Shown here in pieces: positions 12,715-39,000 of a DNA stretch of 64,000 nucleotides. The notes beneath the pieces were generated by a model that worked only from the letters and a program-made list of their open reading frames with translations, searched no databases and was not told the origin of the DNA. Source of the stretch: Vicinamibacterales bacterium (lineage in GTDB: Bacteria > Acidobacteriota > Vicinamibacteria > Vicinamibacterales > JAMQPK01); assembly GCA_963761975.1 (NCBI GenBank), contig CAVXIR010000007.1:1359906-1423905 (forward strand). Direction: 5' to 3'. Made by a program: the position numbers and the translations under genes. Position 1 is the stretch's first letter, and each line of letters begins with the position of its first letter.

Positions 12715-13435
12715 CTCTGTTCGCCGGGGGCGCTCAACTGTTCACGGTGCTGAGACTTCTGCGACAGAGCGATCTGCTCTTCTCTGAGTTGTTACCCGAA
12801 GGCAGGCCGCGCACAGACGCGAATCGTTTTCTTAAGGCGACGTTTCGCGCGGATGGCGGGCTAGATGCGGAAGGATTTTTACAATTGGAAAAAGGCGTCC
12901 ACTGCATGGCTCGCCTGACCAACCACCTAATGGCCATTTGCCATTGCACTGAGCACTTGTAACGTAACGGCGTTTTTCTGAAACCCAATGGTTTCGGACT
13001 GCCATCGCCCGAATCCCTGGCTTGGTCTGACATTAAGACGTGAATAAACACTGCGGCGTTAGAACGAAGCTGCTGGCGCGACGCTCGCCACGCGTGAGGT
13101 ACGCTCGACCGGTCGGGTAGCGTGGCGAAGGTTATGAGCCATTTTGTGGATCTCTCCCTTCATCTGTCTGATTTCATTTTCTCGGTCTAATGGTTTGCTG
13201 ACCATAGACGTTTTCTCTATTTAGTTAGTTCAGTTTCTACTACTGGGCCCCATCGATCGGGGTCGTCATCAATAATGGCGCAACCACCTTCTCAACAGAA
13301 GATGGCGGATTGTGCCAGGCCGGAACACTTGACTCGACGTTGTTCGGGTTGGCGTCTGAGCATTCTTGTGAATGTTGCGGACGGTTGCAGGTAAAATGGG
13401 CATCGCAATCAACGTCCATGTCGATGGCCTCACCC

Positions 13436-16431: not shown

Positions 16432-17857
16432 GGGGATGTCCCACTGACTGTTGAAATTTGAGAGCGGCGGCTCCTCACTGCTCGTGGTAAACGAGTGGTG
16501 ACCAAAACCCGGGCACATGCCCGCCAACAAGGAGCCGCCATGAAGGGAAAGTCTCACACAATCGATGGTCTCACCAAGTCGATTCGCCTGCCCGCCATCT
16601 CCCGCTCGTCGATCTGCTCGTGGATACACGGGCGGAGCTGATGGAGCTGGCGGTGGCCTCGGGTCTGAAGGTCCTCACCACCATGATCGAGGAGGATCGG
16701 ACGGCGATCTGTGGGCCTCGCTATCAGCATCAGACCGCGCGTCAGGCGTCGCGCGCGGGCACGGTGCCGAGCGAGGTGGTCCTCGGTGGCCGGAAAGTCG
16801 CAATCCGCCGGCCGCGAGTTCGCACGAATGGGGCGGAAGTCCCCTTGCCGACGTTTCAGCTGATGGCCAGCGAGGATCCGTTAAATCGTCGCGTCGTGGA
16901 ACAGATGCTCGTCGGCGTGGCGACACGGCAGTAACCACGCAGCCTGGAGCCACTGCCATCGACGATGGCCACGCGGGGCGCGAGCAAGAGCGCCGTGAGC
17001 CGCCGGTTCGTCGCGAAAACCGCCGCGCAGCTCGACGCCTGGCGGTCCACCGCGCTCGACGCGCTCGATCTCGTGGCGTTGCTGATCGACGGCGTCCACA
17101 TCGGTGAACACTGCATCGTGGTGGCGCTCGGGATCGATCACACCGGGCACAAACACGCGCTCGGCCTGTGGGACGGGTCGACGGAGAATGCGACCGTGTG
17201 TCAGAGCCTCTTGGCGGATGTGCAGAGCCGCGGTGTGCGGACGGATCGCAGTCTGGTGATCCTCGACGGATCGAAGGCACTCCACAAGGCGGTGACGCAG
17301 ACGTTTGGCGCCGCCGCGCTGATCCACCGGTGCCACGTCCACAAGCTCCGGAACATCCTGGAACATCTCCCCGAAGGGCAGCGCCCGTGGGTGCGTGCGA
17401 TTGTTGTGCGCGCTTACCGGCAGACCGAGGTCGCGCCGGCGCGACGGCTCCTGCAGGATCTGGCGCGCCGACTGGAAGATGGCTATCCGAGCGCGGCGGC
17501 CAGTGTGCGCGAAGGGCTCGAGGAGACGCTCACTATCCTCACCCTTGGTCTCTCCGATCGCCTTCGTCAGTCGCTCGCCACGACCAACGCGATCGAGAGC
17601 TTGATCGTCGTACCCGGCACGTAAAGCGCAATGTCAAACGGTGGCGCGGAGGGCAGATGGTGCTGCGATGGACGGCCGCTGCCGTCCTCGAAGCCGTGAA
17701 AGGTTTTCGCCGATTGAAGGGTCACAAGGACATGCCGAAGCTCGTCGCCGCTCTTCGCGCTCGCGATCAGCAGCTTGGCATCGCCGCGTCAGTGAGAACG
17801 TCGCATAGAATGTCACCCGAGCCGCCGCTGAATTTCAACAGCGGACGGGGCAACCCC
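16432..17857 (+). mobile_element. IS256-family insertion sequence with disrupted transposase
   Basis: Imperfect IRs ggggatgtcccactgactgttgaaatt / aatttcaacagcggacggggcaacccc; 8-bp target duplication aacccgtg at 16424-16431 and 17858-17865; DDE motifs LIDGVH, ILDGSK, TTNAIESL. Confidence 0.92.
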
Positions 17858-18199
17858 AACCCGTGTCTCCTTTGTGGTAAGCGCTGCCAGTGCTGACGCG
17901 AACTGCCGCAGTATTAAAAAACTGCTGCGCCATTTGATCTATCTCTTGCTGCAAGAGTGTCCATGAGAAGTCGAGTAGCGGCTTGTCACCAATTTGGAAC
18001 TTGTCCTAACACGTTGGCGTCGATCTTCAGCGAACGTACGGCGGGTTCTCCAGTTTTCGAACCTGTGTCGCACAAACGTCGTGTACCCAACGTGGGAAAC
18101 GCGAGGTGCACAACTAGACAAATGATATTAGTTTGCCGCTGTTACTGTGACAGATGCTGAGACGAGCGCGGTCTGATCGTCGTCGCGCTAGCAGTCGGC

Positions 18200-19944
18200 T
18201 GGTTCGGATTCCCCAGGTCGTACAAGGCGGCGCGAGTACCTCCTCCATCGTAAGTCGCAACAGGTGTCACAACTAGAGACCCAATTCTTGAGTGGCCCAA
18301 AATCTCTGGACAAACTGTGTTCGCTCCTCATCGTCGATTAACAGAAAGGGTCTGTACCCACTTGATATGAGGACACCCACCGACCGGTCAGCCAATCAGC
18401 GTAGAGCCAGTCCCAACGCAGGGTCAACCGCCCGGAATAGTATCGGATACTACCTGAGTGGAGCATAGAAACCACAATTGCGTTTGGCGGCAAATTATCT
18501 TGCACATACTCGCCAATTACAGCAAACCGCCGATCATGCGGTTTAGGCGGCTTCAAACCGGTCACATCCCATCGCCAGGCAAGAAACACCACGAAACACG
18601 CTACTAGAACGAACCTCAGCATAAACGAATTCAATCGTTGACCGAGATCGACACAGTTAGGCCGCAAAGGAGCAGTAGCAGCGATATTGCCGGCAGCAGG
18701 AATCGTAAGAACGTCCAGTTATCGAAAGGCGCATACAGGGCATAACATCCGTACAAAGCCACCACGAACACGACGAAGAGGTTTGACAACCTTCCTCTTG
18801 CAGCAATGCGCGAATCAGCATGGGAACTCACGACGCCTCAACAGGAACCACCCTGCAGCGGCGAGCAAGATAAAGGGCGTTTCCATGTCGAGGAGCCACC
18901 TGGATACCGCGAAAGATTCGTCCAGAAATAATCGACGCTGAACAAAACTGACATATCGCCGTATCCGGAAGACAGCGGCGAACCATAGAGCTTGTCGTTT
19001 ACGAGAGCAACTCCGATGCAGCCAGGAATGACGGCTGCAGAAAATATGCAGGCATTCAACAGCCGGCGACGTAGTCTCTCCGCAGAGTAAACCAGAACAA
19101 ATATCCCAGGTACAGCGGCTAACGGCACAAGATTGGCGTAGTGAGAATAGCGGCCGATGTGGCCAGGCCTCCGGCAAAGATAAGAGGCGTCGTCCTTGAT
19201 GCACCTAGTATCGCAAGGAGCCACCATGCCGTGACGGGCACATCGCTCATAGGCTCTTTCAGGTGGAACAAGAAGACTGGGCTTGTAAGCAGCAACTACG
19301 CAGTTGCGAGGCCGCACACCTCACCTGCCACACGCCGTCCAAGAAGGAAAGCTACGAAGATTGTCACTCCGCCAAGTAACGGCACAACAAAGAACGGCCC
19401 GTCCGACCAAACAAAACGAGCAGGCCTGCCATCAGCAGTGGGAGGCCTGGTGGATACGTTGGCACGAACGTTCCGCGTCGAGGCCCGGACGATATCCAAG
19501 CGGTGACAACGTCCACTCCGGCTCAGGCCAGGGCGCGCGAAGAGAAAGTGGTTCGTGTTCGACAAGATTGCCAGCCGCCCACAGGTGCGATTGACTTACG
19601 TATCCGTACGCGTCCGATCCGAGCGCCTCGAACGTCGATACCCGAAACGCAATTGCGACGGTTAATGCCCCGAGGACAATTGCGACGATCGTGGAGTGCT
19701 GCAATACCTGAGACCAAATCGTTGCGAGTTTCTGTTGGCGCAATTCAGATCGATACAACAGAAACGCACTTGCTACGCTTGCTATGAGTGCTGGACGCCA
19801 GAGTGTCTGAGATGAGATTCGAATCCCGTAAGCGCTTGTGTATACACCTGAGCCGAAAAGTGCGACTACGGCGAGTAGGGCACTCGCCACAATCGCAATC
19901 AGAAGAATCGAATCAACTAGCTTGGCACGAATGGCAGTTAGCAA
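18200..19944 (-). pseudogene. Multi-pass membrane glycosyltransferase-like (GT-C) gene in fragments
   Basis: GSDAYGYVSQSHLW, LSPLGYRPG, YGSPLSSGYG, RFLLPA and HSGSIRYYSGR fall in successive frames. Confidence 0.6.
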
Positions 19945-20459
19945 TCTAGGTGGTCAAACGGATATCAACGGTGAATTTCTGGAATCCTGCGTAGAGAATT
20001 GTGGCTTGCGCCGAACACCTGATACCGCAAAATCTATCACAAGCCAACGGTTGGCGACAGTTCTCTCTCCTTCTGCTCGATCCCTATCGCACGGCTTGGT
20101 GATCGTCACATCAAATCGCGGGCCCGAAGAATAGACCTTTGCAGACCGGGTCCGCAGAGTGGCATCGTTCACTCTCCCAGCAACACCTACGATCTCGTCA
20201 TCAAAGACGAATCGTATCGCCGGGCTCAGCCCATGCTCGCCAATGACGGAAAGGAGCGCTCACAACCGTGCACGAGTCGGGCCTCCGCCTACGATGGGGC
20301 CATTCGGCTGGTCTGCGCCTTGGCTCCCGCGATCGCGGCAGTGTAGGACAAAGTCCACATTGACACGTCGTGTCCTTGTCACTCTCGCCCGCCGACGCTA
20401 ACGAAAATTGCGCTTGCCGCGCTATAGAAGTGTTTCTAGCATATATGTGTGTGACCTCT

Positions 20460-21086
20460 ATGAATGCAGTGGAGCAGGGCTGTTGCCGATCTCAGCCAAG
20501 CCCGCAAACGGCCAGGAGTCTATGGAGGGCGTCTAAAATCACGGTGCAGAGGTCGCTCACGCTGCTCTTTGTCGCGTGTCTCGCCGCTCCTGGAATTGGC
20601 AGCGCACAGACCGTTATTGCTCCAGCTCCGCTGCCTGTCCCTCCACTACCACCTCGACTCTTCATCGAAACTGTCCCTGAATCCAGCGGCCGGCCGGACG
20701 AGTCGATCAAAAGTCTAAGTTGGTGGGAGCCTCCTGCGAGCGGCAGCGAGATCCCACGATGGGCGATTGGCCACACACTCGCGTTCAAGACTCCCGGCGG
20801 TCTTGCCTTGTCAGCTGGTTTCTTCGGGCGACGAGGCGATCCGCTTCCATTGTACCTGTCACAAGGCGTCGCGCAGCGCGCCGCCAGCAACTCCGTAACA
20901 CATCCTAGTACATACAAGTTGCACTGGGACGCGAAGTTCGGCGTGTCCGCGCCCTTGCGGAATGGCCCACAATTGAAGATCAACGCGATCGGCGAAGTCT
21001 TTGTGCCACTAACAGGTTCGACCGACCCTTCAGCGGCGTTTCTGACGTCACGTGCGTTCCGGTTCGGAGTCGTGGTGGTCTTCTGA
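20460..21086 (+). CDS. Hypothetical exported protein
   Basis: Signal-like LLFVACLAAPGIGSA; C-terminal FRFGVVVVF; start uncertain. Confidence 0.5.
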   Translation: MNAVEQGCCRSQPSPQTARSLWRASKITVQRSLTLLFVACLAAPGIGSAQTVIAPAPLPVPPLPPRLFIETVPESSGRPDESIKSLSWWEPPASGSEIPRWAIGHTLAFKTPGGLALSAGFFGRRGDPLPLYLSQGVAQRAASNSVTHPSTYKLHWDAKFGVSAPLRNGPQLKINAIGEVFVPLTGSTDPSAAFLTSRAFRFGVVVVF

Positions 21087-21377
21087 TCGCTTTGGGCTTT
21101 AGCGCCGGCTCACCAACTCGGGCGGCCAAGTCGGTTTCGCTCAGCGTCGAGGAGGCGAGACCCGCCGAGCGCCCATGCTTGTTCGTCTGCGTCAACGCCT
21201 CCAGCCATTTTCTCGTGATCGCGCGGCGTTCTGTTGATCCAGAAATCTGGCGCAGCGCTTCTCCAGCAGCCTATCCCGGCTGGGCGCCGAGGCCCGCGAT
21301 TCGCCCGGAGAAGAGGTTCAGCACAACGTGCTGAGGTGTCTTTCAATGGACGCCTTACTTCACATCGTTGCAACCTA

Positions 21378-23141
21378 TCACTGAATCAACTGGAGCTCGA
21401 TCGTCGTTGTCTGTCCTTCGATGAGGCGAAACCGTTTTGCCGTGGATTCCATCTGTTTACGGAAAGCCGGATCGAATTGGCCGCCCTGCTCGAGCGCTTC
21501 GACCGCCACTGCAAAGTAATTACCGGGCGGCAGGCCTTTCGTTTCGAACCGTCCTTGTTGATCCGGGCGTGTTATAAGTGTGTAACGGCCGTTCAGTGCA
21601 GTTTCTCGTATTTTTTCTGGAAAGATCGCCACCGTGCAGTCTGTATCCGGACCGCTCGTGCTCTTTACGTTCCCGGCCAGCGTCGTCTGTTTGTCGGTCA
21701 GGACAATCTCAACGCCGGTAATGCTGGAGACCGCCGACACGTCGAGCGGCGTCTCGGTTATATTCGCGCCGTTGTATGTCACCGATTTCACCGACCAGCC
21801 GACCGATGGCGGAGCGAAGCTCGTTCCTGCGACGGCGAACAGCACGCGGCCAAATGCTTCCTCGATTTCGAACCTGCCGCTCGGGTCAATCGTGCCCTGG
21901 TTAGGGTCGATCACGCGAAAGATAGGGGAACCAAGTGGATCTGCAGGACTCACGATAATGCGGCTGGGTTTCTGTTCGGAACTGCCCTCGAACACCACCT
22001 GACCAGAAATCGTGGCACCAGGAGTGGTCGTGATGACGAGCCCGTTGATGTTGTTGCCATCGGCCGTGATTGACACTGATGCGCCTTCCGCGTCGGCGGT
22101 GCCACCTCGAGGCATCACCTCGAGCCAGTAATCGCCAGGCGGGACATGCGCAATGCTGAAGCTGCCGTCGGGGCCTATTCCACCCCCGGTGCGCATACCC
22201 ATGCCGGCGCCCGTGCGGGTGCGGATACCGATCATGGCGTTCGTGACAGGTTTTCCCATCGAGCTGCGCACCATGCCAGTGACTTTTGTCATTCTCGCCG
22301 GGACAAGAGCGAAGGATGCATGAGCTTCTTCTGCCAACCCTACGGTGATCGCCTGTGCTTCTTCTGAATTCAGTGTGCCGGGATAGTACGTCGTGGCATG
22401 CCCCTCGAAATCTGTGGCCGCGGCTCGCATACCTGGCATCGTCACCATCACATCGGTCGGGCTTGCGCTGACGATGTAGGTACCCGGCACGAGCCCATAC
22501 AGCCGGAACTCGCCGAGATCGTTGCTTTGGACATCGAATGCACCCGCGTCAGCCGGCATGAGTCGCCGTTGTCCATTTGGCATATACGAATGCCGCATCG
22601 CCTGCAGGCCGATGCCCGCGAGCGGCTCGCCAAACTCGTCGGTAACGCGTCCGGCAATGATACCGCCCCGCGGCAGTGCGAAGTCGATCTTCTCCACTGT
22701 CTGACCTTCTCCAATGTTCAGCGGCCGGCCCGACTCGAACGGCCGGCGTTGCCCGAACTGAAGCGACACGTATCCGTTGCGTGTCACGTAAATGTTGTAA
22801 CGGCCGGCAGGCAGATCGACGAACTCGTATCGGCCCTCCGCGTCGCTGTTGACGGTGCGGTTGATGCGAAGCTCGTTTGAGGAAATGCGAATGATCGCAC
22901 GCCGCAGTGGACTTCCCGTATCTGAAGAGACAACTCGTCCGCGAATCCGTGCAGTGCCGGTCGGTACAGCAGAGTTGTCACGTACTGGCATGCCAGGGTC
23001 CGGCGCGGGAGCGCCAGGCCGCGGTACGCCATGCGGGATTGTGGGTGCCTGAGCGTGCGCGGTCACGCTGAGCAGCGCAACAAAAATCGACAGAGTGGCC
23101 GCTCGCATCATCTCCTTACTCCACACATAAGGAAACTCCAC
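21378..23141 (-). CDS. Secreted carboxypeptidase-regulatory-like domain repeat protein
   Basis: Repeated IxGRV...G.PL...D.EGRY/F.F..LP.G.Y units; TYYPGT motif; signal peptide. Confidence 0.85.
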   Translation of the reverse strand: MEFPYVWSKEMMRAATLSIFVALLSVTAHAQAPTIPHGVPRPGAPAPDPGMPVRDNSAVPTGTARIRGRVVSSDTGSPLRRAIIRISSNELRINRTVNSDAEGRYEFVDLPAGRYNIYVTRNGYVSLQFGQRRPFESGRPLNIGEGQTVEKIDFALPRGGIIAGRVTDEFGEPLAGIGLQAMRHSYMPNGQRRLMPADAGAFDVQSNDLGEFRLYGLVPGTYIVSASPTDVMVTMPGMRAAATDFEGHATTYYPGTLNSEEAQAITVGLAEEAHASFALVPARMTKVTGMVRSSMGKPVTNAMIGIRTRTGAGMGMRTGGGIGPDGSFSIAHVPPGDYWLEVMPRGGTADAEGASVSITADGNNINGLVITTTPGATISGQVVFEGSSEQKPSRIIVSPADPLGSPIFRVIDPNQGTIDPSGRFEIEEAFGRVLFAVAGTSFAPPSVGWSVKSVTYNGANITETPLDVSAVSSITGVEIVLTDKQTTLAGNVKSTSGPDTDCTVAIFPEKIRETALNGRYTLITRPDQQGRFETKGLPPGNYFAVAVEALEQGGQFDPAFRKQMESTAKRFRLIEGQTTTIELQLIQ

Positions 23142-26923: not shown

Positions 26924-27520
26924 CTAACGCCGGCGTCGACCAGGGGCAGCAGTTGAACGAGACGAAGATCGTTCGAGAGTTCTAAACGCTGCCCTCCCTT
27001 TGATCCCAGGCGGACACCGCCTACGCGTGATTACTTTTCCGAACGTCAGGAAGTCCCAGCCATAAAAATGATTCGGGTGGACTCCCTCAAGCACATATCC
27101 ATTTTTCAGGTAGCACTCAATAGCCGGGAGATTCGTTGCCGACACATAAAACCAAAACTTGTACAGTTGTCGACGTCGCAGCTCGGCTTCAACTGATCGC
27201 AAAAGTTTGGAGAAAATGCCTCTCCCCCTGAAGGCCGGCGCTACAGCTCCCCATTCTCCTAAGAAGTCGCCCGCTCTAGATGTCGTGCCCCATAGAAAGC
27301 CAATGGCCTGGGTTCGGACAAATGCCCCATAGGCGATTGCGCGGGACCTTAGCATTCGGTGTGCGAGATCTTCAACTGTCCGGAATTGTCTCGACTCCTC
27401 ATCGAGGACCGTGGCCGGATAGTACTTGTCCTTCAACGATGAAAACGTCTTCTTCAGAAGCTCGTGGAGCGACGCTATATCACCCTTTCTCACTCGTCTA
27501 ATTTTGATTTCTAACGACAT
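26924..27520 (-). CDS. GNAT-family acetyltransferase
   Basis: AVAPAFRGRGIFSKLL acetyl-CoA motif; NLPAIECYLKNGY. Confidence 0.85.
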   Translation of the reverse strand: MSLEIKIRRVRKGDIASLHELLKKTFSSLKDKYYPATVLDEESRQFRTVEDLAHRMLRSRAIAYGAFVRTQAIGFLWGTTSRAGDFLGEWGAVAPAFRGRGIFSKLLRSVEAELRRRQLYKFWFYVSATNLPAIECYLKNGYVLEGVHPNHFYGWDFLTFGKVITRRRCPPGIKGRAAFRTLERSSSRSTAAPGRRRR

Positions 27521-27600
27521 TACGCATGTAGACTCGTTAGCGATAAACGAAGGACATTATCGAAACCTTACGCCAAGCGAACAGTAAGCATCTTAAGTAC

Positions 27601-27720
27601 TCATGAACCTTGGCTGACGACAGACGATGGGACACCGTTGGTACGAGCCAGCCATCGTTTCGACCATTGCCATAGCTGCCAGGCTGACTTGGCAAAAGTT
27701 CGAGTTACGTCCCGATGAGG
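27601..27720 (-). repeat. att-like site copy 1 plus orphan recombinase C-terminal tail C
   Basis: aaagttcgagttacgtcccgatgagg at 27695-27720; minus strand reads PHRDVTRTFAKSAWQLWQWSKRWLARTNGVPSSVVSQGS*. Confidence 0.9.
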
Positions 27721-27977
27721 GTCAGCGCTAGTGACTATTGTGGATAAGTGCTGATAAAGAACAGAAAAGCGGCTCAGCGAAGCCGTTTTTCTGTTGGCGT
27801 CATGACGTGCCAGAGCGGTACATTCACGCAGACCCCACCCGTGACATCGAACTTCCTAGACATTGGGGACTTCAGGGACGGTTATCGGAGAGCTAGCGTG
27901 TGATGTGAATGGAAAGACGCGGAGACGGTTCTGTGTCGACGATGAAACGTCCCGTTGGGATGGCTTCACCAATTGTG

Positions 27978-28802
27978 CTATGAAGTAGAACATGCGCTGG
28001 CTTTGTCCTTTACGGGACCGGAGCTAACGTAATTGATGATTAGGCCGCTCAAGCCCGTCTGAAGTTCTGGCGCATCGCTGAAGTAGATGAATTCACGCGT
28101 CTCGAACCAGTCAGCGGCGACGCTCTGATACCTGATGCAAATATTCTTTCCGAGAATATCTGGTTCACGCCGCTCGTCAAGAAAAGCTTTTATCCTTCTC
28201 CGCAACCGCGCTGGAATGATAGTGTCCCTAAAATCGCTGCCGTCAAGCGTCTCAACCGGCAATATCGTCTCGCCTGGTGCACCAGGCGCAAGTGTCGAGG
28301 AGTGCAATAAATGCAACGTGCGCCCTTCGTGCCTAATGTTGATGTCGTCACTATTAAGCGCCGCTCCCAGTCCAATGTTCCGAACAACGAGGTGGTTCCC
28401 CTCGACGCCGAGCACGACAAGTGGTGACACCGAGTTATTGAGCTGCTTTTCTGCGGCGTCGGCCTGGCGACGTCCGGCAGCTGTCTGACTACGTAGCTCC
28501 GTAATCTGGTTTCGTAGTTCCGTTAGCTGATCCTGAGCGCTGACTTGCAACGAGTGGGTAAAGTACGTATATGCGACCACCGCTCCGAGCGTGAAGAATG
28601 CTACGACCGCGTTGAAAATAACAGGACCGGTCCAATGTGTCGTGGGCCGTGCGTGCTCGAATTCGGTTGCGACGCGAGTAATTGTCGATCTCAGCCATTC
28701 ATTGTCGCGTTCCCGTCGCTCCAGCTCGGCACGGAGGGCCGCAGTTTCTGAATCGGTTGGTCGACGCTCGCTTCCCAAATGGTCGGAACCGTTTTGTGAC
28801 AT
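27978..28802 (-). CDS. Membrane-anchored coiled-coil hypothetical protein (cassette B cargo)
   Basis: 274-aa ORF with a single TM (FFTLGAVVAYTYF) flanked by coiled-coil-like segments. Confidence 0.7.
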   Translation of the reverse strand: MSQNGSDHLGSERRPTDSETAALRAELERRERDNEWLRSTITRVATEFEHARPTTHWTGPVIFNAVVAFFTLGAVVAYTYFTHSLQVSAQDQLTELRNQITELRSQTAAGRRQADAAEKQLNNSVSPLVVLGVEGNHLVVRNIGLGAALNSDDINIRHEGRTLHLLHSSTLAPGAPGETILPVETLDGSDFRDTIIPARLRRRIKAFLDERREPDILGKNICIRYQSVAADWFETREFIYFSDAPELQTGLSGLIINYVSSGPVKDKASACSTS

Positions 28803-28888
28803 GGATTCTGCGTCCTATAAAAGGCGGATACGAAAAGCAGCCCGACGAATCGGACTGCTTGGAACGGGCGTCGTGGTTGGCGCAGCTC

Positions 28889-29053
28889 CTACTCCACCTT
28901 CCAAAAGAGCACGGTGGCAGCTGCAATGAGGGACACGAAAAGCCATGCCATCCAACGTTGGTCGGGCGCAATCCAGTAGAAGAACACAGCCCCAAGCGCG
29001 AACAGTGCCATCAAGAACCACGCGGGTAACGCATATCCAAAGTACAGCTTCAT
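28889..29053 (-). CDS. Small two-TM protein (cassette B cargo)
   Basis: MKLYFGYALPAWFL...VLFWKVE; upstream minus-strand promoter TTGACA (29177-29172), 16 nt, TAGTAT (29155-29150). Confidence 0.55.
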   Translation of the reverse strand: MKLYFGYALPAWFLMALFALGAVFFYWIAPDQRWMAWLFVSLIAAATVLFWKVE

Positions 29054-29219
29054 ACAACCCTCCTTCCAAGGGAGGGTGCTAACCAGGCGCGCAAGTACCC
29101 TGACGAACAACCTTCCTCGGAGGAGGGTGTGAAGCTGTAACTGCTGTGAATACTACATGTTACGGACGAGTTGTCAAGTGCTCAGCGGGGACAGGACCCC
29201 GGAAGCCTGGTCTCTAGCC

Positions 29220-29694
29220 TCTAGCCTGGCGCATTTGACAATTTGTCTCTCAGATTTTCTCACGCAGCGAGCAGGTCGATGACATTTTGAATCGCCACGT
29301 CGGCTTTGTGGTACGCGGCTTCAATTTTGGCCGATAGCGTCGCGGTCTTCGTGGGCCTGTGGTGACCGGCTTGGCGAGGCGCGCGTCCAGCTCGTGCGTA
29401 ACGTAGCGCGCGTCTCGCGTGTCGGTAATCCGACCGACCACATCGGCACTGAGGCCGAGTTGCTCGTCGAATTCTCGAACGAGCAGCAACCCGGCGTCGG
29501 TGGTAAGCGTGCCGCCGGCAAAATCGACGACGAGTTTTGGTTGGAATCCGAAGCCAAGTTGCGTATAACAGTCTGTAGCCATCGCACCTCCTGTGTCGGC
29601 GTACCCTCGAGGTCTAAGTCACCGCGAAAGTACCACGACTTTTTCGAGGGCGATGGCGTTTTTACGTACTCATTCGTGAATTATCCGGGCTAGG
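29220..29694 (-). mobile_element. Internally deleted IS1380-family element
   Basis: Transposase N-terminus VVDFAGGTLTTDAGLLLVREFDEQLGL...DTRDARYVTHEL joined to unrelated sequence; ends ctagcccggataattcacgaat / ctagcctggcgcatttgacaat. Confidence 0.7.
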
Positions 29695-29699
29695 TGCGC

Positions 29700-29817
29700 C
29701 GGGGCTTTTTTCTTGGAACCATTTAGCAACTCTTCACGTTTCAACCACCGACGGCCCCAGCTTAGAAGCCTCCAGGCAGTTCTGGCAAAAGTTCGAGTTA
29801 CGTCCCGATGAGGTGCA
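29700..29817 (-). repeat. att-like site copy 2 plus orphan recombinase C-terminal tail B
   Basis: aaagttcgagttacgtcccgatgagg at 29788-29813; minus strand reads APHRDVTRTFARTAWRLLSWGRRWLKREELLNGSKKK. Confidence 0.9.
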
Positions 29818-30053
29818 CAAAAGCTAAAAATATTCCGCTTGGGCGGAATTTTGTGATTTTGTGCTGAGCGGAGCGATGTTTTTGTTTGAGCGAAGCGAAA
29901 GGCAAAAACCGCGAGCTGGGGTCGAGAAAAATTTCCGTCAGGAAATTTATTCGTGACCACAAGTGCTTACGGGCCCATCGATCGGGACCGTCATCAATGA
30001 TGCCGCAACCGTCTTTTAAACAGGAGGTGTCATATTGTGCCGGAGTGGAACAT

Positions 30054-30081
30054 TTGACCAGCCCCTCGTTTTTGCTATCGT
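30054..30081 (+). promoter_or_regulatory. Sigma70-like promoter (cassette A, unit 1)
   Basis: TTGACC, 16 nt, TATCGT with extended -10 TG; same layout as 32455-32482. Confidence 0.6.
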
Positions 30082-30209
30082 AACTGTCAGACAGTTCCTA
30101 CCAACCCAGCTTCAGCCTTGTGTTCCAAGTCTGCTCCTCTCCCGGCTCAACTGATGAATTCCATTCGACTGGGCCGAGACAGTTACTTCAACAGCTCAAG
30201 GAGGTACGT

Positions 30210-30371
30210 ATGAAAATACTCAGAACCTTGTTGGATAGATTTGCGCTACGTTGCGTGGAGTGTGGTAGTTGGGGGTATAAAGCTTTGGATGTAGGCGGAC
30301 TTTTTATCTCTAATCATCCAGAGTACCCCCAGATTCCACCTTTCGATATATGGCGCAGAAAGAATCTGTAG
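30210..30371 (+). CDS. Small protein with CxxC
   Basis: RBS aggagg; MKILRTLLDRFALRCVECGSWG... Confidence 0.4.
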   Translation: MKILRTLLDRFALRCVECGSWGYKALDVGGLFISNHPEYPQIPPFDIWRRKNL

Positions 30372-30462
30372 ACATTGCGGACACGTCATGGTGTCTAAAG
30401 TTGTAGGTACCGAGCCTTTTTGACGGTAAATAATTCCATCAATTCTTTACAGGAGAACTGGC

Positions 30463-30963
30463 ATGCTCTCTCAAACAATTCAGACATTCCCAGTCTGGAA
30501 GACCATCAGACTCGGAACTGGTCTCAAGACCGCCGAGGATTTTCGTGAGGCTCTGGACAAGAACGGATATCGCATTAGTGACTGGGGTAACAACGTCCTC
30601 GATAAATTCCCGGTAGATGATCAGGAAGTGAAGATGGATTTAGTAAACCTCTTGGTGATGGAACTCGGCTTTCCGGAGGAAGGTGCCTTCCACAAGGATA
30701 TATTCTCCAAAGCACTCGAGCTTGGCCTCGAGCTCTGCCCAGCGGAGGTAGGCCCTCAGCTTTGTATCCAGTTTATATTTTGGCAAAAGGGCAAATGGCT
30801 CATCATGGGAATGGACCCCCTTATCGATTCGTCTGGTAATCCAATTATCTTCCGTATCGGGCGCGGTTACGACGGCGAGAACTGGCTCTATGGACGTATT
30901 GGGGGACCTAGCAGTTTTGCAGGTGGAGGCGATCGTTTCGCCTTCATCCAACCGCGGAGATAG
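30463..30963 (+). CDS. Hypothetical protein, paralog of 32619-33122 (Patescibacteria-type family, inferred)
   Basis: FPVWKTIRLGTG...ELGF...ALELGLELCPAEVGPQL...MDP...FAF; RBS aggag; terminator at 30981-31013. Confidence 0.75.
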   Translation: MLSQTIQTFPVWKTIRLGTGLKTAEDFREALDKNGYRISDWGNNVLDKFPVDDQEVKMDLVNLLVMELGFPEEGAFHKDIFSKALELGLELCPAEVGPQLCIQFIFWQKGKWLIMGMDPLIDSSGNPIIFRIGRGYDGENWLYGRIGGPSSFAGGGDRFAFIQPRR

Positions 30964-31032
30964 CTAGTCTAATAAATTCAAGCCTCGACATACGGATGCG
31001 CCGGGGCTTTTTTCTTGGTACAGTAGATTGAG

Positions 31033-31656
31033 ATGCAGAATATTTACGAACAACTTGAGATTCCTGAGCACGATCGCCTGACGTCAATAAGGAAAGAAGA
31101 AGCCGAGTTCATCTATGAGTTTTTACATGATAAGAAAATTACCCAAACTCTCGAGACTGGGTTTGCCTACGGCTGTTCAACTGCTTACATTATGTCTGCC
31201 ACACAGTCTCCGCATGTGGCGGTAGACCCATTCCAAGAACGTTACGAACACTTGGGGTTAAAAAACATAAAGAAATTAGGGCTGGACAGTCATTTGCAGT
31301 TCATAAAGTTACCGTCCCATATTGCCTTACCAAATCTGTTGCAGGAAGGTCTGAAGATTGATTTCGGCTTTATAGATGGTGGCCATAAATTCGACGACAT
31401 TTTCATCGACTGGTTTTACATTGATTTACTCTTGAATCAGGGCGGATATGTAATGTTTGACGATACATGGCTCCATTCCACCAAGACTGTTGCTGCCTTT
31501 ATCACACGTAACAGGGAAGATTATGTAGCCGTTAGTGTTCCGATTGACAATATCTACTTATTTCAAAAAACCGGGGAAGACAGACGTGATTGGTCACACT
31601 TTAAGGATTTTGAGACTAAATTCTCTACATTAGAACAGGACGGTCGTTCTCAATAA
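31033..31656 (+). CDS. Class I SAM-dependent methyltransferase (Methyltransf_24-like)
   Basis: LETGFAYGCST, VDP, FIDGGHKFD, GGYVMFDD. Confidence 0.85.
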   Translation: MQNIYEQLEIPEHDRLTSIRKEEAEFIYEFLHDKKITQTLETGFAYGCSTAYIMSATQSPHVAVDPFQERYEHLGLKNIKKLGLDSHLQFIKLPSHIALPNLLQEGLKIDFGFIDGGHKFDDIFIDWFYIDLLLNQGGYVMFDDTWLHSTKTVAAFITRNREDYVAVSVPIDNIYLFQKTGEDRRDWSHFKDFETKFSTLEQDGRSQ

Positions 31657-31776
31657 TGCTGCAATCCTCTTTTCAGCAGAAGGTATCGGAATGTGCCGGG
31701 ACGGAATGTTGCGACAGTAAAGATGGAAACTCGTTTAGTGATGCAAGGAGGAAGGGCCTGCCTCGTCTCCCTTATT

Positions 31777-32124
31777 ATGTCGGTAAGCTCCAGACCTAGA
31801 TCCTCAGAGGAACTCTTCCAAGCCTATCTCGCGGGCGACGAAACGGCCTACCACGACATCCGTCAAGACATGGAGAAGCTTGTTCATATCGTCGCTCGTC
31901 GATTCAGGGATGAAGCAGATCCTGAAACACTTCTTCCTATAGGGATGACCTACTTCGACAGAGCTTTGAAACACTACGTCGATCATCGCCAAGAGGCGGC
32001 TAAGCAAGGCAAACAGCTCTACAAATTCAGTACGTACTTCACTTGGTGGGCGAGGGAGAGCATTCGCACTTACCTGGGGATCGCTGAAAACCCCTTGGAG
32101 GGCATCATACCTCGCATGGAATAA
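31777..32124 (+). CDS. Mini-protein resembling sigma70 region 2
   Basis: KLVHIVARRF...LLPIG...RALKHY...YKFSTYFTWWARESI matches regions 2.1-2.4; no region 4. Confidence 0.65.
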   Translation: MSVSSRPRSSEELFQAYLAGDETAYHDIRQDMEKLVHIVARRFRDEADPETLLPIGMTYFDRALKHYVDHRQEAAKQGKQLYKFSTYFTWWARESIRTYLGIAENPLEGIIPRME

Positions 32125-32263
32125 TGAGAACTGGGCAGTGCGTAATCATTTCTTGTTTTCATTGAACCCTACATGACAATTCCCAAGTACAGCAAATATT
32201 TCAATTTACATTCAGTTACCAAAGGGATGGACACCTGAGGAGTTTTCCCGTGCCGTTCTTACA

Positions 32264-32434
32264 ATGGAGGAACTCTCACACCAAACACTTCTTCACTTGG
32301 TTGAACAATTCGGCATTCGATTCACTAGCGCCGACCCAACTCTGCTCGATGAAGAGGAATTGATTTCAGTATTGCTTGATGATGTAGAAAAACCACTTCT
32401 TCTTCAGGAACTCGACAAATTGCGAAAAGGCTGA
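32264..32434 (+). CDS. Small acidic hypothetical protein (possibly 5'-frameshifted)
   Basis: Manual translation MEELSHQTLLHLVEQFGIRFTSADPTLLDEEELISVLLDDVEKPLLLQELDKLRKG*; homologous segment at ~14700-14840 on the minus strand. Confidence 0.55.
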   Translation: MEELSHQTLLHLVEQFGIRFTSADPTLLDEEELISVLLDDVEKPLLLQELDKLRKG

Positions 32435-32454
32435 GTCTCACAGTCGTTTAGAAA

Positions 32455-32482
32455 TTGACACCCCTCACCTAGGTGCTAGGGT
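32455..32482 (+). promoter_or_regulatory. Sigma70-like promoter (cassette A, unit 2)
   Basis: TTGACA, 16 nt, TAGGGT with extended -10 TG. Confidence 0.6.
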
Positions 32483-32618
32483 AATCTGCAGACAGTCCTT
32501 CCAAACACGTTTCAGTCTAATCAGTCTGGCATCTTGAGCGGGAATACTCCTGCCTAAAATGCTCGACTGATTTCGGTCGTACCGTCTGGGATTTTCCCGA
32601 TGTTCCAGGAGAACTGGC

Positions 32619-33122
32619 ATGACAACTCTGTCTTCAAGAATCCCGCACCCTCAACCGTTCCCTGTCTACCTTGAAATTGAAGTGGGTGGGAAGTGTAGGG
32701 ATGAGCTCATCGCTGAGCTCGAAGCGAACCACATGTATGTCGACGATCACATCAAGAGTCTCATGCGAGAACTCAGCTTTAGACCCGGGCAGAAGAAGAT
32801 AGTTAAGTTCACGAAGGTCAAGGTTCAGGATCTCGGCTTCGTGGAAAGGCCGACGACTCGGCAACTCTGGACACGTATTAAGAAACTCGGGCATGATCTA
32901 TGCGAGTCGTACGATGGTCAGGGCATTCGATTAGCTCTTAAAGATCAGTCGCTGAGCAACTTATTCTGGATAGCTATGGACCTATACTATGTTGGAGCTC
33001 TTGGCGGGACGGCCATCTTCTGCATTAAAGGTCTTAATGGTGGCTTACCAGAGCTTGGTGCCAGCGTGATTGGCCCCAATTCTGTCTGGGATCTTGATCT
33101 TGAAGTCGTGTTCCGTCTTTAA
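32619..33122 (+). CDS. Hypothetical protein, paralog of 30463-30963
   Basis: FPVYLEIEVGGK...DLGF...IKKLGHDLC...G..IRL...WIAMD...VVFRL; identical 16-nt RBS context caggagaactggcatg. Confidence 0.75.
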   Translation: MTTLSSRIPHPQPFPVYLEIEVGGKCRDELIAELEANHMYVDDHIKSLMRELSFRPGQKKIVKFTKVKVQDLGFVERPTTRQLWTRIKKLGHDLCESYDGQGIRLALKDQSLSNLFWIAMDLYYVGALGGTAIFCIKGLNGGLPELGASVIGPNSVWDLDLEVVFRL

Positions 33123-33137
33123 TTGATACTTCTAACC

Positions 33138-33170
33138 TGCCCGACGCATCCTGCGTCGGGCTCTTCTTTT
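33138..33170 (+). terminator. Intrinsic terminator facing the recombinase 3' end
   Basis: gcccgacgca-tcc-tgcgtcgggc followed by tcttctttt. Confidence 0.7.
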
Positions 33171-33177
33171 ATATAGG

Positions 33178-34704
33178 TCATTTCATAGCTTCCTGTTTCT
33201 TTAACCACCGTTCCGCCCACCGCCACAGCTGCCAGGATGATTTGGAGAAAGTTCGAGTTACGTACCGATGAGGTGCACCATGTAGGAAAGCGCCTCGTTT
33301 CGCGAGCACGGCCAGGGCCGGATGTGGCTCAACCACAACGCAGTTTCCTGATACAGTGCGGTTCGAGCAGAGCTTCAGCACGAGTTCTCTGCGAAACGCG
33401 AGGTCTCCCATTTCGTAGCTTCGTTGAGCCGCGGAAGCCAGTTCGAGTATCTCCAAGATGAAATGCTTCACGGCGCCTGCATTTGTATGCTGTGATGTGA
33501 TCGATTCACGCAGTGAAGCCTCTTCGACGAGAAAGGCGTGTTTACGTTGCTCGAAGGTCGGCTTGTCGATTAGGCCATCAATGAGCGCGTCTACCAGCTT
33601 GGCTTGGCGCGCTTGAATTGCCGCAATCTGAAGTTCAAGCTCTCCGCGTAGGTCGCCATCATCCTTGCGGTCTTCCTGCTCAATGAGTTCAAGTTCCCGC
33701 TGGAGCCGAGCCCGTTCCTCATCAGACACAGCAATTGCCGGCCAGGAATCCAGGATGGCGGCTTCCAGCACCTCTTGCCGAAAGGTCTTGGTCGGGCAGC
33801 CTCTGGAATGGCAACGGTAGTCCCGGTGCCCCTTTTGGACTTCACCGAGAAGCGTTCGGCTACACGCTGAGCATTTGAATAGTCCTCGAAAGGCAAAGTC
33901 GTGAACGCGACCCTGCATCCGAATCTTTCCTGCTAGCCGCAGTTGGACCTGCTTGAACAGCGTCAGTCCGATTAGTGGCTTGTGCGCGCCCTGATATGTC
34001 TCGCCAGTGGCTTTGACACGGATCAGGCCAGCATAGAATGAGTTGTTGAGGATAACGGAAAGGCTGTTGAGGCACAGTCCATTGCCTCTCTTGTTCCGCA
34101 GACCACGGCGATGGAGTTCCACCGCGAGCGTGTCGAGTGTATGCTCGCCGGCCGCGTACAGCTCGAACGCCTGGCGGACAAGCGGCCCCTTGAGTGGATC
34201 GATCGTCTTGGCCTTGCCCTTCCCGCTATCGAGATAGCCTAATGGGGCACCGAAGGGAATGAGGCCCTCCTTGAGACGGCCCCGAATGCCTTTGATGATC
34301 TCTTCCCGGAGATTCCGAACGTAGTCCGCAGCGACGATTGCCTGGATGTCGGCAGAGAGACGGCCGCCACGGGAGTGGAGGTCAAGGCTTTCGTTGGCGA
34401 AGTGAACCGCCACGCCGGCATCGATCAGTTCATTGAGCTCGGTCCAGTCACGAAGGTTTCGAGCGCTCCGGTCAATCTTATGAATGATGACGCCCTGAGC
34501 CTTACCGCGCTTGAGTCCAGACATCATTTCTGCAAAGACGGGGCGCCCTTCCTTGGCCGCGGTAACGCACTCTTCAAACCAGGCCGCGACAGTTAGTCCA
34601 TGCTTCTGTGCATAGGTGGCAATGGCATCCCGCTGTTCCCTAAGCGAAACGCCCAGCTCGCTTTGCTTGCGAGTCGAGACCCTGGTGTAGGCGTAGAACT
34701 TCAT
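33178..34704 (-). CDS. Large serine recombinase (LSR-2) with att-like site in its 3' end
   Basis: YTRVST catalytic motif, DRSARN, recombinase domain, zinc ribbon CSAC...YRC...C, coiled coil; 26-bp site at 33248-33273 encodes PHRYVTRTF. Confidence 0.93.
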   Translation of the reverse strand: MKFYAYTRVSTRKQSELGVSLREQRDAIATYAQKHGLTVAAWFEECVTAAKEGRPVFAEMMSGLKRGKAQGVIIHKIDRSARNLRDWTELNELIDAGVAVHFANESLDLHSRGGRLSADIQAIVAADYVRNLREEIIKGIRGRLKEGLIPFGAPLGYLDSGKGKAKTIDPLKGPLVRQAFELYAAGEHTLDTLAVELHRRGLRNKRGNGLCLNSLSVILNNSFYAGLIRVKATGETYQGAHKPLIGLTLFKQVQLRLAGKIRMQGRVHDFAFRGLFKCSACSRTLLGEVQKGHRDYRCHSRGCPTKTFRQEVLEAAILDSWPAIAVSDEERARLQRELELIEQEDRKDDGDLRGELELQIAAIQARQAKLVDALIDGLIDKPTFEQRKHAFLVEEASLRESITSQHTNAGAVKHFILEILELASAAQRSYEMGDLAFRRELVLKLCSNRTVSGNCVVVEPHPALAVLAKRGAFLHGAPHRYVTRTFSKSSWQLWRWAERWLKKQEAMK

Positions 34705-36240: not shown

Positions 36241-37422
36241 ATGAATCAACGCTCACCAGATGTGACCTACTTCGCTCGCACCAATCACCGCCAGCCACGG
36301 CGAGTCTTCGGCATCAAGCAGGCTGACCGACGATCTCACATGTATGTAATTGGAAAGACCGGCACGGGAAAGTCCACGCTGCTCAAGACGATGGTGTTGC
36401 AGGACATCGCGGCGGGCCGTGGCCTGGCTCTTCTGGACCCTCACGGAGACCTGAGTTCCGAGATCCTCGCTGGCGTGCCGGCCGAACGGCGTAAGAAAGT
36501 CATTCACCTGGACACACCCAGCGCTAACTGGACCTTCAATCCCTTGAGTCACGTCGCAGCGGGGCATGAGGCGCTTGCCGTCGCTGAGCTTATCGAAGTC
36601 TTCAAGAAGATTTGGGTCGACGATTGGGGTCCTCGCCTTGAGCACGTGTTGCGAAACGTTCTCTTCACGCTCCTTGAGACACCCGGGGCGACACTGGCAG
36701 ACGTTCAGCCGCTCCTCACCAACCGAAAATATCGAGAAGCAGTCGCCGATGATCTGCAGAACACTGAGGTCCAGGATTTCTGGCTGAAGGAATACGCAGG
36801 GTAAAGTGGTCCGTTCAGGGCCGTTGTGATAGCCCCGCTCCAGAACAAACTCGGTGCCCTGCTGACCGATCCTCGAATGAGCGCCATCATCACAGCGGAG
36901 AAGACCTCCTTCGACATCGCTGCTTTAATAAACGAGGGATATGTCCTTCTCGCGAATCTCTCACGCGGGCAAATCGGCGAAGGGCCGGCTATGCTCCTCG
37001 GAGCACTGTTGGCCGCTCGGATAGGTTTGGCAGGGTTGGCACGAGCCGACCAACCAGAGCAGGATCGCCGAGACTTCTGCCTTTACCTCGACGAATTTCA
37101 GATGTTTTCGACCCAATCATTCGCATCGATGCTCGCCGAGCTGCGAAAGTATCGAGTTGCCTTGGTGCTTGCGAATCAGTATCTCGGCCAGCTGGAAATG
37201 CCGATTCGGGATGCAGTCATGGGAAATGTCGGGACACTGATCTGCTTCCGGGTGAGCGCCGACGATGCGAGCTACCTTGCGCGAGAATTCGTCCCGACGT
37301 TTGAGGCTCAGGACCTTGTGAGCATACCGAACTACAACGTGTGCATGCGACTCATGATTGACAGTGAGGTGTCCCGTCCGTTCAGTGCGGAAACCATCGT
37401 GGACGGTGATGTGCGAAATTGA
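36241..37422 (+). CDS. Second VirD4/TraD-like ATPase, interrupted by in-frame TAA at 36802-36804
   Basis: GKTGTGKS, DPHGD, YLDEFQ, ELRKYR...ANQ; both ORF halves are in the same frame. Confidence 0.8.
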
Positions 37423-37467
37423 AACGGTTAGAGTTTGGTTGTCGTTACTTGATATTGAGGTAGTGAC

Positions 37468-39000
37468 ATGAAGCAGGAAGCCGCTCGACGAACCGTTGAA
37501 ACAGAAAAGAAGCGCGTCGGAATCTGGATTCGCGTGTCGACCGAAATGCAGACCAACACCGACAGCCCTGAGCATCACGAGCAGCGAGCGCGCATGTTTT
37601 CAGAACAACTCAAGGGCTGGACGGTCTGCGAGGTCTATCGCCTAGACGCGGTGAGTGGCAAATCGGTGATGGCCCATCCTGAAACTCAACGAATGCTGGC
37701 GGACATCCGTCGCGGTCACATCACTGGGCTCGTGTTCTCCAAGCTCGCCCGCCTAGCACGGAACACGAAGGAACTTCTCGAGTTCTCGGAAATCTTCCGC
37801 TCTCACGACGCGGATCTCATTTCCTTGCAGGAATCGATCGACACGTCTTCGCCAGCCGGAAGGCTGTTTTTCACGGTCGTCGCAGCCCTAACGCAGTTCG
37901 AGCGTGAGGAGATTGCCGAGCGCGTGGCTGCCTCCGTCCCGATTCGGGCCAAATTGGGCAAGCCTCTGGGCGGCGCCGCACCGTTCGGGTATCGGTGGGA
38001 AGGTCGGCAACTGTTGCCGGATCCCCAGGAGGCGCCGATTCGGAAGCTGCTCTATGAGCTCTTCATTGAACATCGGAGAAAAAAGACTGTCGCAAGGCAA
38101 CTAAACCAAGCCGGGCACCGCACGCGCAATGGGTCAGCTTTTACCGATACCACCGTGGACCGGCTGTTGCGTGACCCGACCGCCAAAGGCGTGCGACGTG
38201 CGAACTACACCAGAAGCTTGGGTGAGAAGAAACATTGGCGCTTGAAACCCGAAAGCGAGTGGGTCTTGACGCCGGTTGAGCCGATCGTGTCCGAGGAACT
38301 GTGGGAGCAATGCAATGCGTTGCTCGACGAACGGCGCGAGGTGGCGAAGCGTCCGACACGGCGTCCGGTCCATCTGTTCGCCAGCGTGACCTATTGCACC
38401 TGCGGGCAGAAGATGTACCCACCGTCGAACTCGCCAAAATATATCTGCCGGCAGTGCAAGAACAAGATTCCGATCGTCGACTTGGAAGCTGTCTTTCAGG
38501 AGCAGCTCAAACAGTTCTTCCTGTCGCCCAGCGATCTCGCTGCGTACCTTGAGCAATCCGATGACGTGATCAAGACCAAGAAGGAACTCCTCGACTCTCT
38601 CGAAGCCGAGCGCGGCCGGCTGCGACAGGACATGGACAAGGTCTATCGGCTATATATGGCGAACGGCATCAGCGTGGACGGGTTCCGCCAGACCTACGGA
38701 CCGCTCGAAGAACGGGCGAAGCAGGTGGATGCTGAACTCCCGCGGCTTCAGGCCGAAGTCGACTACCTGAAGATCCAGCACCTGTCCCGGGACGAAGTGC
38801 TAATGGAAGCCAAGGATCTCTATTCCAGGTGGACCGGACTTGAACCGGACGAGAAGCAAAGGATTGTCGAAGCGGTTGTGCAACGCATCGAGATCGGAAA
38901 GGAGGACGTAGCCATCGAGCTGTGCTACGTCCCTTCGCTTTCCGAAATCGTGTCAACTGGGCAACGGTTGAACAGGGGTTCATTGCGGCCACGAGCATGA
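37468..39000 (+). CDS. Large serine recombinase (LSR-1), island integrase targeting comM
   Basis: WIRVST, ARLARN, APFGY, zinc ribbon CTCG...YICRQC, coiled coil; the 3' end reads across the comM junction. Confidence 0.93.

Follow-up and report, generated by a model that had tools for sequence, protein, structure and literature searches.

A stretch of 64,000 nt (hereafter the window) from contig CAVXIR010000007.1 of a Vicinamibacterales bacterium (assembly GCA_963761975.1; genome of 7,702,276 bases) contains a gene for a large serine recombinase (LSR), here called LSR-2, in whose 3' end lies a short sequence that recurs twice further downstream, each time followed by a spare version of the recombinase C-terminus. 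The locus is probably a site-specific accretion array, a row of recombinase-less cassettes beside an LSR that has the attachment (att) site inside its own gene.

Using a pattern search, we found the 26-bp core AAAGTTCGAGTTACGTMCCGATGAGG at 27695-27720 (copy C), 29788-29813 (copy B) and 33248-33273 (copy A), always on the plus strand and with 0 mismatches. Three matches were reached in 0 of 100 shuffles, and at up to 3 mismatches the whole genome holds the same three only (the reversed control gave 0). Over the 26-31 bp of the site, B and C are identical and A differs at one base. Core A lies within the LSR-2 gene, as the codons for PHRYVTRTF, and on the LSR-2 strand cores B and C run in frame into PHRDVTRTFARTAWRLLSWGRRWLKRE... 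and PHRDVTRTFAKSAWQLWQWSKRWLART..., respectively. When the three C-terminal tails were compared with the genome by tblastn, only these three places were recovered (E<=2.6e-10; next best E=0.11). No recombinase body was found ahead of tails B and C in 27000-33180, either by tblastn with 10 LSR bodies (E<=10, best 0.26, which is noise) or with the family profile, which matched only tails B and C in the window units (profile positions 469-508). An earlier note, made from the letters of this DNA alone, had described the threefold core in direct orientation with spacings of 3460 and 2093 bp, the in-frame continuation into homologous tails, the synonymous codon differences between these, the lack of a recombinase body before B and C, and units that each hold a full homologous tail and no serine recombinase; this description proved accurate in all the details compared, and the codon differences that it quoted are visible in the alignment. 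The parts of the array, in the direction of LSR-2 transcription, are:

33178-34704, minus strand: LSR-2, an intact large serine recombinase of 508 aa (translation, Pfam).
33240-33281, minus strand: site A, attP-type, within the LSR-2 coding sequence (nhmmer with the family site profile, E=5e-06).
33178-33247, minus strand: tail A, currently joined to LSR-2, ...RTFSKSSWQLWRWAERWLKKQEAMK and stop codon (translation).
33139-33161, plus strand: terminator-like hairpin that separates the last unit 1 cargo gene from the stop codon of LSR-2 (terminator calling).
29814-33177, unstranded: cargo of unit 1, with no recombinase (list of open reading frames (ORFs), Pfam).
29832-29849, called on both strands and folded: terminator-like hairpin, acting both ways by prediction; on the LSR strand it lies 19 bp upstream of core B.
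29778-29819, minus strand: site B, orphan attL-type, core at 29788-29813 (nhmmer E=1e-06, alignments).
29670-29787, minus strand: tail B, an orphan tail ORF, RTFARTAWRLLSWGRRWLKREELLNG...IIHE and stop codon (tail profile E=4e-10).
27721-29669, unstranded: cargo of unit 2 (ORFs, Pfam, NCBIfam).
27770-27785, unstranded: terminator-like hairpin; on the LSR strand it lies 50 bp upstream of core C (called, folded).
27683-27724, minus strand: site C, orphan attL-type, core at 27695-27720 (nhmmer E=8e-06).
27601-27694, minus strand: tail C, an orphan tail ORF, RTFAKSAWQLWQWSKRWLARTNG...QGS and stop codon (tail profile E=8e-11).

Site A corresponds to codons ~474-488 of LSR-2 and encodes the linker GAPHRYVTRT; its crossover would lie between GTG and CACC at the end of the site, near 33274-33280. 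The identity of site B to site A begins at GTGCACC, and the left arm of site B is unrelated to the LSR body.

LSR-2 has the domains of a large serine recombinase, namely a resolvase-type catalytic domain (Resolvase PF00239, 5.2e-27, residues 4-147, with the catalytic Ser in a YTRVST motif near the N-terminus), a Recombinase domain (PF07508, 5.1e-10) and a zinc ribbon with a long coiled-coil insertion (Zn_ribbon_recom PF13408, 7.6e-06, 26.7 bits against a cut-off of 25.3). Its AlphaFold2 model (mean predicted local distance difference test score, pLDDT, of 80.7) has long helices at 328-375 and 381-403, a low-confidence linker (pLDDT<50) at the site-encoded residues 473-485, and a terminal helix at 487-507. 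By comparison with its relatives, LSR-2 would recombine specific att sites. A search of proteins yielded 4299 relatives (E<=1e-20), the best 120 at 48-68% identity, and a metagenome scan with an alignment of 30 relatives gave 552 confirmed loci, of which the best 80 were kept; these, with the one locus (45% identity) from a scan of reference-genome contigs, make up the 81 loci studied here. Closer to the host, 5 of 60 other genomes (genus to order level) have a match at E<=1e-30, none above 36% identity, and in a sample of the phylum family members occur in 7 of 400 other genomes (43-48% identity), beyond the reach of the site and tail profiles (best site E 0.0012). In the 120 listed homologues and the 81 loci, the protein natively ends in G-x-P-x-R-x3-R-T followed by an amphipathic stretch, and this is the C-terminus proper to the family.

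In 52 LSR genes the site, inside the gene 3' end, has the consensus GGTG(C/G)CCCGTATCGGGACATACCTCGAACTTGGGA, and the information at third codon positions is 1.15 bits inside it, as against 0.43 upstream and 0.15 downstream, so that the constraint must act on the DNA, beyond the peptide alone. With an AAATCG conserved ~20 bases upstream, the consensus can be read as an imperfect palindrome of ~50 bp centred near the boundary of GGTG and CCCC. Use of the site as att is seen in four of the 81 loci, where the LSR 3' end enters a tRNA gene called on the opposite strand (tRNA-Glu in L024 and L039, tRNA-Tyr in L030, tRNA-Ala in L082), the tail being replaced by the antisense tRNA; the C-termini of several further relatives presumably resemble antisense tRNA as well. 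The LSR of L024 (10001-11449) ends inside tRNA-Glu, and a site free of LSR, joined to a full native-type tail, lies on the same strand at 5648, displaced 5.8 kb upstream to the far end of the element; attL and attR of this element have TGGCAGCCC in common. Three further loci, L069, L072 and L080, have LSR bodies that are 86-92% identical and that lose homology at +7 to +31 of the site, past which L069 has a long tail, L072 a short tail with an orphan long tail 417 bp on, and L080 a tRNA-like remnant; recombination has thus taken place there recently within the family, replacing the enzyme C-terminus. As judged by comparison of these sequences, the core is the att site of the LSR-2 family, in line with the earlier note, which took the repeats for sites of recombination where the recombinase gene ends. 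At the distal edge of the variable region in L061, L063, L069 and L072, neither a site nor a tRNA remnant was found. In L015 a tRNA-Arg was called 2.3 kb downstream of the LSR; 95 nt long and not tRNA-like, it was set aside as a probable false call. In some tails a second right-arm motif, CCTCGAAC, stands 11-50 bases past the first (L049:1633-1680, L062:11419-11470, L069:11417-11500, and the L069 relatives L060, L061 and L074), and such duplicated motifs may be footprints of off-register recombination.

All 81 loci were then scanned on both strands with a tail profile, applied to six-frame translations, and with the DNA profile of the site, covering about 395 kb upstream and 404 kb downstream of the LSR genes. 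Orphan sites (E<0.1) were found downstream on the LSR strand in nine loci (L020, L026, L047, L048, L049, L058, L072, L075 and L087) out of the 60 that have at least 1 kb of downstream DNA; upstream there is a single one, in L024, and on the strand opposite the LSR there is none in the ~800 kb scanned. The earlier note had suggested looking for repeated core and tail units with variable cargo in homologous loci, and these nine, which come from many soil and water metagenomes, are such loci. One of them, L058, has four units behind the LSR, with sites at 12803, 16120 (degenerate), 18487 and 19739, and each of its three good sites is followed by a complete tail 80-90% like the tail in use. In each array GTG(C/G)CC marks the point from which LSR site and orphan site are identical, whereas to the left of it the orphan arms are unlike the LSR body; the orphan sites are best described as hybrids of attL type, because only the crossover region and the conserved right arm, with its tail, are kept behind a foreign left arm. 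On visual inspection, an A-tract, a hairpin and a T-tract stand within 80 nt upstream of 9 of the 13 orphan sites.

Comparison of loci also suggests how units come and go. The 92 bp past the tail of L086 match only the DNA past the orphan tail of L087, so the pair looks like an empty and an occupied site, and a conserved backbone module M comes 0.85 kb after the LSR-attached tail in L016 and follows the orphan tail in L087 and L048. Most simply, both comparisons would reflect a unit gained or lost between an LSR body and a tail already present; the LSR genes compared are ~70-76% identical, and independent histories are possible.

The tails themselves behave as coding sequence. Between the window tails, synonymous differences are at saturation (proportion of synonymous sites differing, pS, 0.71-0.87; pN 0.24-0.40), and the cores stay identical or near-identical. 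For a test of selection, we pooled adjacent tail pairs from nine arrays, using the codons beyond the site with four skipped, and obtained a pS of 0.474 (85.3/180) against a pN of 0.173 (112.7/651; Fisher p=3.5e-15). On these counts the tails have evidently diverged under purifying selection as working coding sequence, with the site held fixed as DNA. Two observations concern the very end of the protein. A C-terminal -AA is found in 30 of 120 homologues and in 24 of 81 LSR ORFs (proteins P0002-P0120; LSR ORFs of L004 and L012-L091), when 0.7% would be expected from the frequency of alanine; this ending, which would lie within the exchangeable tail, resembles an ssrA-type degron, and window tails A, B and C do not have it. 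Seven homologues (P0047, P0050, P0052, P0054, P0055, P0056 and P0058) are only 473-476 residues long and end 3-5 codons past an ANR motif, to the left of the proposed crossover, an early stop that neither model of array growth explains.

The cargo of the two window units is mutually unrelated. Unit 1 has four ORFs on the plus strand (30463-30963, 31033-31656, 31693-32124 and 32619-33122), the second of which encodes a methyltransferase (Methyltransf_24, 3.4e-12). Unit 2 has an ORF of 274 aa on the minus strand (27978-28802) and, also on the minus strand at 29250-29582, the N-terminal fragment (first 60-odd residues) of an IS1380/DDE_Tnp_1_4 transposase (DDE_Tnp_1_4, 9.4e-12, profile positions 4-64 of 435; IS1380, 4.8e-08). 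The window cargo gave no PADLOC match, and unit 1 no useful NCBIfam match. In the related arrays, defence functions are recognisable: a unit of L058 (12803-16120) encodes a complete SIR2-HerA pair (HerA 8.6e-235, SIR2 3.6e-149), a glyoxalase-family protein is also found in the units of that locus, and an OLD-family ATPase-nuclease lies past its last site (19739-21467); a PifA-like KAP NTPase is found in L026 (11630-13942; 5.2e-80), an Mrr-type endonuclease with an IS256-type transposase in L047 (8951-10015), and an NYN-domain protein in L049. The first cargo gene past the tail is common to L063 (11618-12171) and L087 (11706-12253), at 65% nucleotide identity, and the LSR genes of these two loci have no mutual blastn match; the shared gene hints at cassette exchange between different recombinases.

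From these data a mechanism can be proposed. Recombinases of the LSR-2 family have their own recombination site within the last ~30 codons of the recombinase gene, its right arm encoding the disordered linker G-x-P-x-R-x3-R-T, after which comes a C-terminal helix of 25-45 residues, the tail. With the site inside the 3' coding end, any recombination there exchanges the C-terminus of the enzyme. Sites B and C each consist of a foreign left arm behind a terminator hairpin, the crossover region, the right arm and a complete tail ORF, and bound two recombinase-less units, of 3460 and 2093 bp, that may be cis-mobilisable cassettes on which the adjacent LSR is able to act in trans; as every unit brings a tail, the LSR frame would be completed whichever unit adjoins. 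We infer that the array is the work of LSR-2 itself, that its units travel as circles and that the tail has a regulatory role. For the entry point of new units, two routes can be drawn: units may enter at the LSR site, as the earlier note proposed, and push older ones outward, through recombination that is non-canonical or helped by a factor, or they may have come in through a distal site of attB type, lost since then.

Several points weigh against a site-specific accretion array as we read it. Canonical LSRs do not recombine attP-type with attL-type sites, and since these are the types paired in the array, insertion at the LSR site would call for a directionality factor or for behaviour outside the canon. 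Neither the window nor the 100 kb past its low-coordinate end, the direction of the array, has a tRNA or tmRNA gene (in the 264 kb examined, the sole one is ~63 kb away from the window on the other side), nor is there a fourth site in the genome marking the other end of an LSR-2 element; as it stands, the window array is thus not anchored on a gene of this kind. The transposase fragment in unit 2 means that the locus underwent other rearrangements. The signal of purifying selection may date from a phase in which the tails were attached to an LSR, and not from selection on orphan tails. Terminator-like hairpins are no more frequent in this region of the window than by chance (8, against a shuffle mean of 7.6), and the folding energy upstream of orphan sites is a weak signal (median percentile 0.28, combined p=0.007) from sequence whose composition differs from that of the random windows. 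Finally, the 80 metagenome loci are those that scored best among 552 relatives, rather than a random sample, and include three duplicate or overlapping pairs (L036/L037, L088/L089 and L090/L091).

A bolder form of the proposal, which we regard as possible but doubtful, makes the locus a serine-recombinase counterpart of the integron, with the LSR's own 3' end as cassette acceptor and tails that tune the enzyme. Each cassette would then have to bring a new C-terminal helix, and the identity of that helix, or its loss on integration into a tRNA gene, would set the stability or directionality of the enzyme; the degron-like -AA ending of about a quarter of family tails would be a case in point.

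The array may also have grown from its far end. Units would have entered serially at a tRNA or tmRNA gene there, LSR-2 belonging to the oldest unit, each unit would have left its right arm and tail at the junction with its neighbour, and the tRNA end would later have been lost or separated by relocation or truncation. The enzyme chemistry would be the same, the direction of growth opposite, and the LSR gene as such would receive no insert. The same order of units would result if they came in at a distal tRNA-type site; the family does integrate at tRNA 3' ends, as in L024, and the orphan left arms resemble, by eye, the antisense of a tRNA acceptor/CCA end (for example TGGTGGCCC in L075). A terminator beside the left arm would suit a unit abutting a tRNA gene, and a precedent has been published (PMC3146451). 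Same-strand pairs of family LSRs, as expected for tandem complete elements, are found in two reference genomes of the same phylum (G359:C2:1614130-1630577, 13.5 kb apart, and G346:C44:2314-10227, 6.5 kb apart). Against this stand the lack of any tRNA or tmRNA gene on the expected anchor side of the window array, just described, and that of tRNA genes in the 4.5-10 kb of downstream DNA at the nine array-bearing loci; moreover, the L086/L087 and L016/L087/L048 comparisons are simpler as gain or loss of units between the LSR body and an existing tail. We consider such relocated or truncated growth from a tRNA gene unlikely.

Decay of tandem complete elements, in which units 1 and 2 once had their own LSR and kept only the tail when its body was deleted, is very unlikely. 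It is true that the broken transposase in unit 2 and a coupling protein-like gene split into two ORFs (below) indicate regional decay, and that tandem LSR-bearing elements exist in the family (L088/L089 and the pairs in G359 and G346). However, no trace of an LSR body was found in 27000-33180 (the earlier note had named decayed bodies beside tails B and C as one outcome that would refute its reading), and none of the nine array-bearing loci has a further serine-recombinase body downstream. All 13 orphan sites, in 10 loci, lose their likeness to the LSR within a few bases, next to GTG(C/G)CC, and such a common stop point is unlike the outcome of random deletions. That the LSR 3' end was duplicated locally or copied by gene conversion, or that the assembly is at fault, site-specific recombination having no part in it, is scarcely credible: attached and orphan tails are very alike in L048 (pS 0.12, the likeness extending beyond the stop codon) and L049 (pS 0.22), but in the window the tails are synonymous-saturated around an identical core and between unrelated cargo segments, the window sits in a contig of 1.6 Mb, and the same layout occurs in many independent assemblies. 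Invertible switching of the shufflon type was ruled out, all sites being in direct orientation, and so was membership of the integron family, as the recombinase is of the wrong class.

A site-specific accretion array is a kind of system that is already known. In Dehalococcoides, according to McMurdie et al. (2011, PMC3146451), genomic islands stand in tandem downstream of ssrA, bounded by direct repeats of the segment from the T-loop to the 3' end, and in every case it is with its 3' end that their LSR gene, dsiB, overlaps att. In 15 of the 31 islands there is no integration module, which was read as cis-mobilisable elements joined by accretion, and the authors speculated that a neighbouring island may provide "the requisite 3' gene fragment" (PMC3146451). 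DsiB is CcrB-like, and its overlapping C-terminal part was judged divergent and probably non-functional (PMC3146451). The integration module includes a second, small serine recombinase, DsiA, with syntenic partners. No small serine recombinase was found beside LSR-2 among the ORFs scanned, no dedicated search having been made. LSR-2 and 52 relatives share with these islands an LSR gene whose 3' end overlaps att, and the window and the nine array-bearing loci share with them tandem units, some without integrase, bounded by direct repeats of the site. The two systems differ in that the Dehalococcoides array is anchored on ssrA, whereas the window array has no tRNA gene and is headed by an LSR with a native-type tail; anchoring of this kind is seen in the relatives L024, L030, L039 and L082. 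They differ also in the tails, which here are a conserved family feature that diverged under purifying selection, carried whole by recombinase-less units.

In staphylococcal cassette chromosome (SCC) elements, the site is at the 3' end of rlmH, a gene that is completed by a repeat present in each element, and some units have no ccr. The target there is thus a housekeeping gene, and here the recombinase gene itself. CcrAB and CcrC likewise build tandem cassette arrays, and CcrB is the best NCBIfam match of LSR-2 (1.6e-25); with 89.7 bits against a cut-off of 900, LSR-2 is not a Ccr, and no paired CcrA-like partner was identified. Composite SCC islands are LSR-built tandem cassettes downstream of a fixed site, some with anti-phage defences (PMC11470126). 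The earlier note, which knew of no equivalent LSR array, is contradicted by these islands and by those of Dehalococcoides; the architecture that it proposed and the replacement of tails are upheld, the latter by the near-identical bodies of L069, L072 and L080, and its claim to have no precedent is not. Its comparison with integrons stands for the architecture, with recombinase-less cassettes in direct order beside a recombinase gene, variable cargo and, in relatives, defence systems, and fails for the class of recombinase and the type of site. Integrons rely on the tyrosine recombinase IntI and on attC sites that fold, as single strands, into imperfect hairpins; their cassettes lack promoters and are read from a shared one, Pc. 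Here, by contrast, there is a serine recombinase, the sites are of double-stranded type and lie inside coding sequence, genes occur in both orientations and a terminator ends each unit. Archaeal integrases of the SSV1 type resemble LSR-2 in having att within the recombinase's own gene, so that integration alters the product; they are tyrosine recombinases, with attP inside int and a gene that is split by integration, and we know of no cassette arrays or spare gene ends among them. The cis-mobilisable elements (CIMEs) of streptococci and their integrative, conjugative elements (ICEs) also include att-flanked non-autonomous units, in tandem with an autonomous element and mobilised in cis or in trans, but their integrases are mostly tyrosine recombinases that target the 3' end of a host gene, and no recombinase tail is involved.

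In the open-access full text of PubMed Central and bioRxiv (articles without supplements), we found no description of an LSR cassette array with replacement C-termini. Within that literature we met four aspects in no paper: the layout as a trait of a large and widespread LSR family, an array headed by the recombinase gene itself with no tRNA gene, a conserved and selected module beyond the crossover that is carried whole by recombinase-less units, and the accommodation of the site in a disordered linker.

The genes on the other side of LSR-2 belong to a backbone that is common to related loci, consisting of a Dam-like methyltransferase, an ATPase resembling type IV coupling proteins (T4CP) and HerA, and a Replic_Relax protein. 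This module lies either downstream of the LSR and co-oriented with it, or upstream and divergent; the window has the divergent form, with the following features at 36241-39000:

36241-36804 and 36826-37422, plus strand: T4CP/HerA-like ATPase, in two ORFs.
37468-39000, plus strand: LSR-1, divergent from LSR-2.

Homologues of these neighbours are found in L012, L051 and L068: the ATPase in L012 and L051, and the same pair of LSRs in L068 (174-1606). In a comparison of synteny with 24 genomes of the same genus, the region 27.6-34 kb is unshared except for two short matches. Elsewhere in the window, 16432-17858 is insertion-sequence-like, with three more genomic copies at 99% identity and one at 87%.

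If our reading is right, a layout described from one genus, Dehalococcoides, and with a different target from SCC, extends to a broad and mostly uncultured LSR family (the 4299 proteins and 552 metagenome loci above). The earlier speculation about a 3' gene fragment would gain content, in that the part beyond the crossover would be a conserved and selected module travelling with the cargo, and the way in which serine integrases sense the integrated and the excised state would become testable, the state being written in the C-terminus. Compact att sites that are tolerated in a coding linker may also interest genome engineers. As units of relatives carry SIR2-HerA, a PifA-like KAP NTPase, an OLD-family nuclease and Mrr, the arrays may be another route for the exchange of defence genes. 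Should the locus prove to be a serine-recombinase counterpart of the integron, cassette content would be coupled to recombinase activity, and the arrays would serve soil bacteria as stores from which defence and other accessory genes can be exchanged.

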